Source: an uncultured Chloroflexia bacterium | GTDB taxonomy: Bacteria > Chloroflexota > Anaerolineae > CG2-30-64-16 | DNA length: 64,000 nt | Direction: 5' to 3' | Assembly (NCBI GenBank): GCA_963810095.1 | Contig: CAWEMM010000006.1 | Coordinates: forward strand, 1,856,168-1,920,167 | Shown: piece by piece, positions 24,900 through 39,531 of the stretch | How positions within the stretch are numbered: the first letter of the stretch is position 1 | How the letters are laid out: the number at the start of each line of letters is the position of its first letter | Translations under genes and position numbers: made by a program | Notes under the pieces: generated by a model | The model's input: only the letters and a program-made list of their open reading frames with translations | Databases searched by the model: none | Told to the model about the DNA's origin: nothing

Positions 24900-25145
24900 A
24901 TGGACACCGAACAAGAACGGCAGCATCCGCAGGCACACCTGTTTACGCTGCGCGTCTGGGAAGAGGCTCTGGGCGAGGGCCAAGCCGAGTGGCGCGGCCG
25001 CGTACAGGAGATCGTGACGGGCGAAACCGGTTTCTTCCGCGACTGGCAGGGACTGGTCGCGACCGTGCAACGTCTCGTGAGCAGGCCGGCTGCCGCCCGT
25101 GAGGACGGGTTGGGCACTGCTCACGCAGAGGGAGAGGATTCGTGA
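24900..25145 (+). CDS. Small conserved hypothetical protein of the type found beside Chloroflexi BTAD regulators
   Basis: LFTLRVWEE...WRGRVQEIVTGETGFFRDW motif; AAAGG RBS. Confidence 0.65.
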   Translation: MDTEQERQHPQAHLFTLRVWEEALGEGQAEWRGRVQEIVTGETGFFRDWQGLVATVQRLVSRPAAAREDGLGTAHAEGEDS

Positions 25146-25165
25146 GAAATCCATGGCAAAACCTG

Positions 25166-25194
25166 TTGCTTAGCGACTCGGGACATGGTAAAAT
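25166..25194 (+). promoter_or_regulatory. Sigma70-type promoter for the BTAD-TelA-vWA operon
   Basis: TTGCTT-17 nt-TAAAAT with TGn extension. Confidence 0.5.
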
Positions 25195-25265
25195 AGCACC
25201 GCGGTCCACGAAGTCGGCGACCGCGGCAGCTGTGTTCCTTGTCCTCTGCGTCAAAGGTGGTGACC

Positions 25266-35800: not shown

Positions 35801-37042
35801 GGTCAGCTGGAAGCAGATCCTGGAGCTGGTCGCCGACCCGCAGGGCTGGACGAAATACGGGCACCGGAGTGGGGAGAGTTCAAGTTCGGCCACCCCCATC
35901 CGGGAGAATCCTCGACGGGATTCAACATGTTGGCTTCGCTGGCGTACGCGGCACTGGCAAAGACCGGAGGACTAACGCCGGTCGACCTGCAGAGCGAGGC
36001 GGTAGTAGAGGCTTTTCGCAAACTGGAGCAGAACACCTACCACTACGGCACGTCGACGCGGGGCCTCCTGACAGTGATGGCCCTGCGAGGACCTTCCTAT
36101 CTGCACGCCGCGGCCGCAAGCGAGACGTCGATGCTTATGACGCAGCAGAATCAGAAGGACGTCCTACGTTTTCCACTGGCGTTTATCTTTCCCGAGGAGG
36201 GTGTCTTCTGGATGGACAACCCGGCGTGCGTGCTTGACGCGAGCTGGGTGAGCATGGAGCAACGGGAGGCGGCGCAGACATACCGGGAGTACCTGCTGGC
36301 ATTCGAGCAGCAGGACAAGGCCATCGAGATGGGCTTGCGGCCCGCAGTCCCGGGGGTTCCGCTGCATGCCCCGATCACGCTGGAGAACGGGACCGACCCC
36401 CGCGTGACCGAGAAGACGGTGCAGCCGCTGGAGAACGTGAGCGCAACGACGCACGATGCGGTCGTGGAGTTGTTCAGGCAGACCAAGAAACCGGCATCGG
36501 TGGTCCTCGTTATCGACACCTCCAACAGCATGGCCGGCGAAAGGCTGAGGAACACGATCCTCGCCACCCGCAACTTCATAACCCGCCTCGCACCACAGGA
36601 CAGGGTCCGCATGTACGCGTTCAACAATGAGGTGATGGAGGTGGGCCAGTACGGCGCAGCGGCGGAGGTGGGCCCCAAGCTATCGGAGGCTCTGGGCCGG
36701 GTGCGCCCGGGCGGCCAGACCGCCCTTAACGACGCGATCTGCACGGCAGTGCAGGCCGCAGAAGTCGCACGCGACGAGGATCGGGCCGCGGGCGAGAATC
36801 GCTTGTACGGGGTCGTCGTCCTATCGGATGGAGCGGAAAATCGGAGCAATCAGAAGGATGTTTTCGCGTGTTTGCCGACGGGCGAGGACGTCGAAGGCGT
36901 CAAGGTCTTTACGATCGCGTATGGTCCGGATGCCGATGCCGCGCTTTTGAAGACGATCGCGGAGCGCACCAACGGCAAGACATTCAAGGGTGCACCGGCA
37001 ACCATCGACCAGGTTTATCTCTGGATCTCGGCGGAGCAGTAG
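32883..37042 (+). CDS. Large multi-TM + amphipathic-repeat + SBP + vWA protein, paralog 3 (multiple frameshifts)
   Basis: About 7-8 TM segments at 32883-33530, Ala/Arg/Trp-rich helical region to about 35350, then a TM, an SBP nearly identical to paralog 2, MIDAS DTSNSM and ISAEQ; no clear internal RBS/start; may instead be two genes. Confidence 0.6.
33855..34250 (+). repeat. Three diverged tandem units of about 144 bp inside the large vWA gene
   Basis: TGGGC(G/A)T(T/C)GGATTCG...GCAGCCTGGCA(T/C)GC(A/G)ATCCTGG recurs near 33865, 34008 and 34151. Confidence 0.65.
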
Positions 37043-37187
37043 CGCGGAAATTGGCGGCTCGCCCGAGCAAGGCGGTCGTCTTTCGAGTGAAGGTGTGAAG
37101 CGGCGGCAATGAAGAGTAAAGAGCAGAAACGGCGGGCTTCTCCGCGAGGAAAATGCACGGACGTACGGATCTTGGGAGGAGGAACAT

Positions 37188-39531
37188 ATGACTCGTCGTG
37201 TCTTCGCCACGCTGGTTGCATTGATCCTGGTGATCTCTCCGACCGGCGTCCGGGCCGGCGTGGAAGTGGGGCAAGTCCCTGAGCCCCCAGCTAGCCAAAC
37301 ACACCCAGCTGAGTCGGGATCTGCCACTGCGCCAAACGCCAAGGTTGCGGCCGTGCTGGCCACCGCGATCAAGGTGGTGGCGGGTTCTTATCACACGTGC
37401 GCGCTGACAGGCGCGGGCGGCGTCAAGTGCTGGGGTCAGAACGACAGGGGCCAATTAGGAGACAACTCGACGATCAATCGGTCCGCGCCGGTCGACGTGG
37501 TTGGCTTGCGACGGGTGTGACGGCCGTAGGCGCAGGCGGACTCACACGTGCGCCGTGACCACTGGAGGTGGCGTCAAGTGCTGGGGCCAGAACGACAGGG
37601 GTCAGTTGGGCGACGGCACGACGACGGACCGACCTACGCCCGCTGCTGTGAGCGGGCTGGGGAGCGCCGTGACGACCGTCGCCCTAGGCGAGGCCCATAC
37701 CTGCGCGCTGACAAGCGCGGGCGGCGTTAGGTGCTGGGGCGACAACAGTTCCGGACAACTAGGCGACGGGACCTCGACCTCGCACACCATGCCCGTTGAT
37801 GTGAGCGGATTGCAGAGCGGGGTGGTGGCCGTGGCCGCGGGCAGCGCCCACGCCTGTGCCGTGACGAACGGGGCGCGGCCAAATGCTGGGGCAATAACGA
37901 CTCCTTTCAGCTGGGCGACGGTACAATGACGACTCGCACCACGCCGGTCGACGTGAGCGGGCTGGCGAGCGGCGTGGTGGCGGTGGCTGCAGGACATTAC
38001 CACACCTCCGCGCTGACCGTCACGGGGCCAGTCAAATGCTGGGGCTACAATATCCACGGTCAGTTGGGCGACGGTACAACGACCCTGCGCTATACGCCCG
38101 TGGACGTGAGCGAACTGACCAACGGCGCCGCGCTGGTCGCAGGCTGGGATCACACCTGTGCGCTGACGAGCGGCGGCGCGGTCAAGTGCTGGGGGGACAA
38201 CTCGTCAAATCAGCTGGGCGACGGCACGACGGCCAGCAGTTTGGTGCCGGTAGAGGTAAGCGGGCTGGCGAGCGGCGTGGTGGCGCTAGCGGCGGGCAGC
38301 GCCCACACCTGCGCGGTGATGAGCGGTGGCGCGCTCAAGTGCTGGGGTGCGAACCGCAGCGGCCAACTGGGCCGCGGCACGTGGAGTTGGAGTCCGGCCA
38401 CGACGAGCTATGTGAGCGGGCTGGCTAGCGGCGCGACGGCGTTGGCTGTAGGTGCTGTCCACACGTGTGTGCTGACGAGTGGCGGCATAGCCGAGTGCTG
38501 GGGCAATAACTGGTCCGGCCAGTTGGGTGACGGCACGACCGCGTCGAAATACACGCCGGTGGGAGTGAGCGGGTTGACAAGCGGCGTGACGGCGCTGGCT
38601 GCCGGCTGGAGCCACACCTGTGCCGTAACGAGTGAGGGGCGCGGCCAAATGCTGGGGCGACAACCAATACGGGCAGTTGGGCGACGGCACGACAACGGTT
38701 AGTACCACGCCGGTTGGTGTGAGTGGGCTAGGGAGCGGCGTAGTGACGTTGGCTGCGGCCGAGAACAATACGTGTGCCGTGCTGGTTGGTGGCGCGGTCA
38801 AGTGCTGGGGCGCTAACTGGTACGGCCAGCTGGGCGACGGCACGAGGACGTCACACTACACCCCTGTCCCCGTGAGCGGGCTGGCGAGCGGAGTGGCGGC
38901 GCTGGATGCGGGCTGGGACCACACCTGTGCGCTGACCAGCGGGGGTGCCGTCAGGTGCTGGGGTCTAAACCACTTGGGCCAACTGGGCGACGGCACGACC
39001 ACTCTTCCCATCACGCCGGTAGCCGTGGCGGGGCTTGCCGGCGTTGCCCGACTGAGCGCAGGCGGGAACCACTCCTGCGCTGTGACGAGCGGAGGCGCGG
39101 CGAAGTGCTGGGGCAATAACGGAGACGGCGAACTGGGCGACGGCACGACAACGAACCGCACCACGCCAACCGACGTGATCGGGCTTGCCAGTGGCGTCAC
39201 GGCTTCGACCGCGGGGTTCAGGCATACGTGTGCGCTGACCAGCGCTGGCGACGTTAAATGCTGGGGCGATAACGACTCCGGCCAATTGGGCGACGGCACT
39301 AACGAGGCTCGCACGACACCCATGGATGTCGGCGGGCTTCCGACCGGCGTAGTCGCCGTCGACGCAGGTGGGGAGCATACGTGCGTCGTAACCAACGCGG
39401 GCGGTGTCAAATGCTGGGGCGACGGCTCTTATGGCCAGCTCGGCGTCAATCCGGGCTGGACGCCAGTGGACGTGGTGGGGTTCGGAGCGCCGCCTGCGGC
39501 GGTCCTGTATCTGCCGGTGGTCTTTCGCTGA
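37188..39531 (+). CDS. Secreted RCC1/BLIP-II repeat protein, 14 repeats, C-terminal xYLP motif (several frameshifts)
   Basis: Signal peptide; HTCA...VKCWGxN..GQLGDGT repeated 14 times at about 153-nt period; ends [19 protein letters not shown]. Confidence 0.88.

Follow-up and report, generated by a model that had tools for sequence, protein, structure and literature searches.

The window analyzed here, a stretch of 64,000 nucleotides (nt) from the genome of an uncultured Chloroflexota bacterium, carries a block of about 12 kb that encodes a TelA-family protein, surface binding proteins, and a membrane adaptor fused to a transcriptional activator. The surface proteins join a solute-binding protein (SBP) to a von Willebrand factor A (vWA) domain, and the activator is of the SARP type, i.e. 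a winged helix-turn-helix (wHTH) followed by a BTAD domain. We propose, largely by analogy, that the block serves in membrane (envelope) stress and that its adaptor would be a membrane-tethered SARP activator under the control of TelA, and we give this reading a probability of roughly 45%. It is favored by the fusion of the adaptor to output domains, by the linkage of adaptor, TelA and SBP-vWA genes, by the predicted membrane topology, by a PspA-based twin in the same genome, and by low ratios of nonsynonymous to synonymous substitution (Ka/Ks). The window corresponds to positions 1856168-1920167 of contig C6 of the source genome (G000), an assembly of 6.1 Mb in 16 contigs with a completeness of 88.5%, and the nearest relatives of its proteins are labelled Anaerolineales or Anaerolineae. 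An earlier, sequence-only reading of this DNA had described a co-oriented run of eight genes. All eight elements were found, all on the plus strand, with the Pfam-identified members far above chance. Run on the stop-to-stop open reading frames (ORFs) of the window, Pfam placed TelA, VWA, SBP, BTAD, Bax1-I and RCC1 each where that reading had put them.

As assembled, the adaptor gene is divided between an ORF with the BTAD domain (25197-25970; PF03704, 70.7 bits versus a cut-off of 22.1) and an ORF with the transmembrane (TM) and coiled-coil part (25974-27032). The sequence-only reading had taken these as one protein, and homologues bear this out. As judged by sequence comparison, the fusion of SARP and adaptor is genuine, because 12 full-length homologues (564-635 amino acids, aa) contain it: among 15 longer homologues of the coiled-coil part, 12 carry PF03704, two carry DUF2167 and one is family-less. 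In one such homologue, P0121 (607 aa), the coiled-coil part is 85% identical to the adaptor of the window and BTAD scores 87.5 bits. From the N-terminus it has a SARP, ~100 aa of Pro/Ala-rich linker, the motif SDALQHPxT, two TM helices and ~240 aa of coiled coil. The winged helix of the SARP part is putative: positions 6-251 of the AfsR model NF053617 align with residues 3-244 at 32 bits, far under the cut-off set for full-length matches; the Pfam model Trans_reg_C matched neither the BTAD ORF nor P0121.

The adaptor appears to swap its output domain, which is a SARP here and a Ser/Thr kinase in the same position in relatives. A profile of the adaptor retrieved 300 representative clusters at E ≤ 1e-30, and most of the best 150 representatives are about 300 aa long. 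From these 150 we chose by eye 46 long members (at least 389 aa) for a Pfam scan. Their N-terminal parts were a Ser/Thr kinase in 12 cases, a SARP in one, DUF2167 in one and PspA-like in three; two others gave weak matches to other families, and the remaining 27 were family-less. The two kinase-fused adaptors seen in their genomic context (loci L095 and L168) both precede TelA and vWA genes. The three PspA-like members, P0290, P0341 and P0381, are about 400 aa long and combine a PspA-like N-terminal half with the C-terminal half of the adaptor coiled coil; P0381 alone of the three lies above the Pfam PspA cut-off, and a coiled-coil bias is possible.

The coiled coil is predicted to lie on the same side of the membrane in the SARP, kinase and DUF2167 forms. 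A cytoplasmic SARP or kinase at the N-terminus followed by two TM helices puts the coiled coil in the cytoplasm, and in the DUF2167 form an N-terminus lying outside the membrane followed by three TM helices likewise does so. According to the sequence, the two TM helices of the adaptor are linked by only ~5 residues. The translated TelA has no signal peptide and is therefore expected in the cytoplasm, where the coiled coil of the adaptor lies.

The TelA family was identified with PF05816 (gathering score 30) in two frames of the window, with 113.7 bits over profile positions 108-331 (frame 27558-28244) and 28 bits over positions 14-109 (frame 26888-28036). Its close homologue in L095 is intact and scores 138.5 bits. 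We used an alignment of TelA to scan metagenomes, obtained 64 loci, and called the neighboring genes by tblastn. In all 39 loci whose sequence extends 500 nt or more upstream of TelA, the gene immediately before TelA is a homologue of the adaptor, and an SBP-vWA gene is found in 14 of the 21 loci with room for one. The conserved core is thus the 2-TM coiled-coil adaptor, TelA and SBP-vWA, a recurrent module that supports the grouping of TelA, coiled-coil membrane protein and SBP-vWA in the sequence-only reading. The companions named in that reading fared unequally: BTAD does co-occur with TelA, in one of the 64 loci (L181), Bax inhibitor-1 (BI-1) does so only in the sister species (genome G001), and RCC1 never does. 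Two window ORFs upstream of the third vWA domain, orfX and orfY, were found in none of the 64 loci. Among 105 neighboring ORFs of 13 longer loci, Pfam identified PP2C, FHA, Ser/Thr kinase, histidine kinase with response regulator, and extracytoplasmic function (ECF) sigma factor genes.

In a sample of the class, TelA was above the Pfam cut-off in 9 of 301 genomes; the other TelA genes of this sample, which score higher, are 24-28% identical to that of the window, and two of eight have an SBP-vWA-like neighbor. A sample of 401 genomes of the phylum gave eight matches at E ≤ 1e-20, none of them close outside G000 and the others at most 27% identical. The count of 401 includes an unpublished genome, G576, on which no claim rests.

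The same genome contains a second locus of related design outside the window (C6:1031980-1039070; L019, 2980-10067). Its products are a wHTH regulator, PspA and a PspA-like protein, followed by an SBP, an SBP-vWA protein and an XpaC-like 2-TM protein, so that PspA occupies the place that TelA has in the island. The 2-TM protein (297 aa) matches XpaC weakly (E 2.4e-4), which is the best of the weak genome-wide matches to PF10112. The SBP-vWA gene of the twin is frameshifted. The gene order is kept in five of the five fetched loci of the PspA type from relatives, and in part in L099.

The working that we propose for the module is modelled on PspA-PspF, ClgR-PspA-PspM and XpaC-TelA. Its core consists of an adaptor with a tight 2-TM hairpin and a cytoplasmic coiled coil, a helical TelA in the cytoplasm, and one to three SBP-vWA proteins at the surface. 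In this lineage the adaptor has acquired an N-terminal SARP on a flexible linker of about 100 residues and would thereby be a tethered one-component regulator. At rest, TelA bound to the coiled coil would keep the SARP inactive. Damage to the membrane or surface, detected within the bilayer itself or passed on by the anchors that hold the SBP-vWA proteins in the membrane, would then recruit TelA to the membrane or alter the oligomerization of the adaptor, and the tethered SARP would switch on the promoters of the island, that of BI-1 included.

Three known kinds of system resemble the island in part. The XpaC and TelA genes of Firmicutes (xpaC-yaaN) adjoin, and as in the island the TelA-family gene has as its neighbor a gene for a small 2-TM membrane protein whose cytoplasmic part is helical; the island adaptor differs in having no PF10112 match and in bearing a SARP, and the island also includes SBP-vWA surface proteins. 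In ToxR and CadC, an N-terminal winged helix is followed by one TM segment and a periplasmic sensor. The island protein resembles them in that TM segments would hold a predicted N-terminal winged-helix domain at the membrane, but it has a 2-TM hairpin, a cytoplasmic coiled coil, and a DNA-binding part of the SARP type. The Psp systems, PspF||PspABC of E. coli and ClgR-PspA-PspM-PspN of M. tuberculosis, likewise unite a helical stress effector, a small membrane partner and a dedicated regulator, and the twin locus with its PspA, SBP, SBP-vWA and 2-TM proteins adds to this likeness; in the island, however, TelA stands in for PspA and the regulator is covalently joined to the membrane partner. 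The island gave no match to the PspB, PspC, PspM or PspN families. Two reports link the xpaC-telA pair to envelope or antimicrobial stress (PMC6811118; PMC3498285), and in the Psp systems described in a third, PspA works together with a partner in the membrane and with a transcription factor (PMC11237479). Portions of the literature link TelA to tolerance of tellurite, daptomycin and bacteriocins, and the literature that we found describes no mechanism for it. A literature search, which did not reach Anantharaman et al. 2012, found no published description of this module; the main text of Kaur et al. 2020 (PMC7159879) mentions neither TelA nor TCAD9, and Ravi et al. 2024 do not mention TelA, vWA, SARP or BTAD.

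Several results weigh against a TelA-gated stress module. The adaptor family matches no Pfam family. XpaC (PF10112) matched neither the adaptor nor P0121 at E ≤ 10, and PspM/Rv2743c (PF25587) matched neither the adaptor nor, in a genome-wide search, anything in the island; the likeness of the adaptor to PspM is only a lead from an Atlas feature (0.89). We also considered the adaptor family as a homologue of the XpaC-like 2-TM proteins of PspA-type loci and rejected it at an hhalign probability of 1.9%. The analogy to XpaC and Psp systems therefore comes from architecture and gene order only. A literature search found no characterized membrane-held SARP. The binding of TelA to the adaptor, the stimulus and the SARP targets are what we infer from the analogies. 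A complex prediction for TelA and residues 44-265 of the adaptor coiled coil, run without controls, scored 0.01 and 0.00 versus a mark of 0.32. An AlphaFold2 model of TelA from 24 sequences had a mean predicted local distance difference test (pLDDT) score of 55.1, too poor for a fold search, and a PDB sequence search with the TelA profile gave nothing useful. As far as the sequence can tell, the TelA frame also remains broken in the window: the shift near 27561 amounts to one surplus A relative to G001, and the available short-read contigs do not reach this site. Finally, 78 of the 79 genome loci of the closest SBP-vWA genes (L022-L100) have no TelA by tblastn, and TelA with the adaptor is present only in L095; the surface proteins therefore do not require TelA.

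TelA is widespread, and the fusion of its obligate membrane partner to an activator, and to kinases in relatives, indicates that the pair signals; the twin in the same genome allows TelA to be compared directly with PspA, which is ESCRT-III-like. A broader claim is that the adaptor is the signalling hub of a widespread stress system of the TelA/PspA type, where a PspA-like TelA would gate whichever output is fused. In this general form the idea is possible but doubtful; if it is true, the island would represent a new class of membrane-tethered SARP regulators and would give a first mechanistic handle on TelA, with SBP-vWA as its outward-facing arm.

The roles could also be assigned differently, with the island as a receptor system for solutes or surface ligands. 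The three SBP-vWA proteins would then bind specific ligands outside the cell, the SBP cleft taking a small molecule and the metal ion-dependent adhesion site (MIDAS) an acidic residue of a partner, and signal across the membrane to the adaptor-SARP protein, with TelA merely a scaffold. We regard this as unlikely. The SBP fold itself is modelled with confidence: the AlphaFold2 model of SBP-vWA2 (mean pLDDT 83.8) is a type II solute-binding protein with an ITIH-type vWA domain, and Foldseek matched it to 4r6y, FbpA, MctA, PotD/F and Sbp at E 1e-13 to 1e-10. These proteins bind phosphonate, Fe3+, metal-citrate, polyamine and sulfate, which would suit a receptor but points to no single ligand class, and the island genes have no adjacent ABC permease or ATPase. 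The MIDAS residues DxSxS..T..D (D412, S414, S416, T478, D514) do not vary among the 24 SBP-vWA proteins aligned, in agreement with the MIDAS named in the sequence-only reading. The paralogues have diverged to 52-71% identity, all three predate the split of G000 and G001, and their membrane attachments differ. SBP-vWA1, which is 52% identical to SBP-vWA2 and has no SBP match in Pfam, has a TM anchor at residues 31-62 of its ORF; the N-terminus of the G001 orthologue of SBP-vWA2 reads as a lipoprotein signal peptide; and SBP-vWA3 follows a polytopic domain. All of this fits receptors, but the ~5-residue loop of the adaptor hairpin leaves almost no outer adaptor surface that an extracellular receptor could contact, and 7 of the 21 TelA loci with room have no SBP-vWA gene. 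The sequence-only reading had proposed this signalling from receptors to a fused activator; the fused activator and the MIDAS were found, and the signalling step itself is hypothetical.

The third SBP-vWA gene requires a comment. In the window its vWA part (ORF 34928-37039) scores 53.4 bits to VWA and 28 bits to SBP_bac_11 (cut-off 25). A G001 ORF of 876 aa, with six TM helices and repeats of ~48 aa, is collinear with orfX and orfY over three frames of the window and runs into vWA3. The multi-TM-SBP-vWA3 element of the earlier description is therefore probably, by this comparison of sequences, a single gene for ~1400 aa. A tandem unit of 143 nt occurs in three copies at 33858-34201 and encodes a TM-like segment; its odd period probably reflects indel errors in the ~48-aa repeat, which is in one frame in G001.

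Several features of the genomic setting recall an anti-phage or conflict system, i.e. a vWA-kinase-phosphatase system (TerY-P-like) on a mobile island. The GT2 glycosyltransferase gene (22334-23077, minus strand) and the HTH gene (39558-40541) that flank the block in G000 are directly adjacent in four of five same-genus genomes examined (G001, G002, G003 and G005), and the 16.5 kb between them are therefore an insertion in G000. In G001 the block lies elsewhere (C21:1640-14935), with homology from 18 nt before the small first gene to vWA3, BI-1 relocated, an SH3 gene extra and RCC1 absent. Close SBP-vWA paralogues (at least 52% identity) occur only in G000 and G001 among the eight genus genomes G000-G007. 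In relatives, PP2C, FHA and Ser/Thr kinase genes adjoin the core (L148/L149, L161, L162), and in L059 and L060 two SBP-vWA genes are accompanied by a TCAD9 protein, which in L060 is fused to vWA. However, the inserted segment has no integrase or transposase, and no nuclease, toxin, NTPase or other effector domain was found. PADLOC, run on 11 island proteins, had no match for ten of them and a single weak one, PbeC at E 5.8e-4, in a coiled-coil region; BI-1, moreover, belongs to a cytoprotective family. On balance we find a conflict system improbable.

The insertion gave two further observations. The junction of GT2 and HTH may be an insertion hot spot. In G007 (L203, 5750-10420) it holds a different insert of 4.7 kb with a flavodoxin gene and proline-synthesis-like genes (aldehyde dehydrogenase and glutamate-kinase-like). 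No direct or inverted repeats flank the ends of the G000 insert.

It is very improbable that the island is a decaying remnant or a chance juxtaposition of genes that no longer cooperate: although TelA, the SARP-adaptor gene, vWA3, BI-1 and RCC1 are all disrupted in the window as assembled, short-read contigs (four runs from one study) contradict it at ten small indels, G001 holds the same genes disrupted at other places and in different genes, Ka/Ks between G000 and G001 is only 0.069 in the coiled coil, 0.111 in BTAD and, in the part of TelA that follows the shift, 0.118, and the order of adaptor and TelA is kept in all 39 loci. The Ka/Ks values of 0.07-0.12 indicate that the genes are under purifying selection. 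The indels lie at 25914, 31050, 31100, 33676, 33770, 33790, 33857, 34119, 34139 and 35863, seven of the ten within 33676-35863 and two (31050 and 31100) near the start of SBP-vWA2. The extra base at 25914, which the short-read contig does not have, truncates the C-terminus of the BTAD ORF. By these comparisons, the broken frames of the window are mostly assembly errors.

Two of the genes that the sequence-only reading had included in the system do not recur with it. BI-1 recurs only in the sister species G001, where the orthologue shares 68% of 254 aa with it and reaches 159.4 bits at positions 1-207; tblastn found it in none of the 64 TelA loci and none of the 79 SBP-vWA loci, and Pfam in none of the 105 neighboring ORFs. 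The same searches found no RCC1, which in G001 (75% complete) is not beside the island and has no genome-wide match at E ≤ 1e-30. The RCC1 protein, whose gene contains a repeat family of 12 copies, is on this evidence from gene neighborhoods a neighbor outside the module. Upstream of BI-1, the motif CAAACGC-N4-TAAGCG has its only two matches in the window, and in G001, where BI-1 has a different location, the repeat region still precedes it. The pair may be an operator for the SARP.

Table 1. Features of the island and its surroundings, in coordinates of the window
Feature	Position	Strand	Basis or remark
Segment of 16.5 kb inserted between the GT2 glycosyltransferase gene and the HTH gene	23078..39557	.	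Comparison of the junction in relatives
Small 81-aa gene, family-less	24900..25145	+	First gene of the block common to G001
Promoter-like TTGCTT-17 nt-TAAAAT with TG extension, before the SARP gene	25166..25194	+	G000/G001 intergenic alignment, read by eye
SARP (wHTH and BTAD), Pro/Ala-rich linker, 2-TM hairpin, coiled-coil adaptor, ~590 aa	25266..27035	+	Broken by indels in the window
TelA-family protein, ~397 aa	27053..28247	+	PF05816; frameshift near 27561
SBP-vWA1, N-terminal TM anchor	28314..30143	+	VWA 44.1 bits (ORF 28248-30140)
CAAACGC-N4-TAAGCG, two exact copies 23 nt apart, upstream of BI-1	30170..30209	+	Candidate operator
BI-1/YccA-family membrane protein	30304..31014	+	PF01027, 96.1 bits versus gathering 34.1 (ORF 30253-30861)
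SBP-vWA2, probable lipoprotein	31085..32839	+	VWA 54.9 bits, SBP_bac_11 34.2 bits (ORF 31055-32836)
Probable single gene: 6-TM domain, ~48-aa repeats, TM, SBP-vWA3; ~1400 aa	32883..37042	+	Collinear with the 876-aa ORF of G001
Secreted RCC1-repeat protein, at least 12 repeats	37188..39531	+	RCC1 Pfam matches in four overlapping frames, 37113-39528

The small gene at the start of the block had no match in Pfam or PADLOC searches. Its G001 counterpart is 73% identical, homology between the two genomes starts about 18 nt 5' of its ATG, and in the metagenome locus L181 a fragment of it lies ahead of the SARP gene. The candidate promoter that follows it is kept between G000 and G001 and is absent from the output of a consensus scan, which found 12 terminator-like sites in the window versus 9.9 expected and one promoter-like site versus 2.1 expected.

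Some of the relatives of the SBP-vWA genes have recurrent surroundings of their own. Among the 79 SBP-vWA loci, the most frequent neighbors are an FGE-sulfatase-like gene, in 30, and a small TM coiled-coil protein, in 27. The nearest stand-alone SBP-vWA genes usually lie, with these neighbors, between thiolase and hydroxyacyl-CoA dehydrogenase genes. The two loci with TCAD9, a kinase-like protein that precedes the two SBP-vWA genes, are on contigs of metagenome-assembled Chloroflexota genomes (L059, 12-6634; L060, 199-6534).

Between the GT2 gene and the block lies a set of Pro/Thr-rich ORFs (23195-24875, with the Pro/Thr-rich ORF at 23195-24831), which a search of five genomes found in G000 alone. 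The set contains repeats of 12 and 24 nt at 24091-24290, and a perfect 15-bp hairpin follows downstream at 24844-24875. At the other end of the window, positions 53453-64000 contain two tandem rRNA operons (16S, tRNA, 23S and 5S, then 16S, tRNA and a 23S truncated at the contig end), which account for the lower G+C content there.

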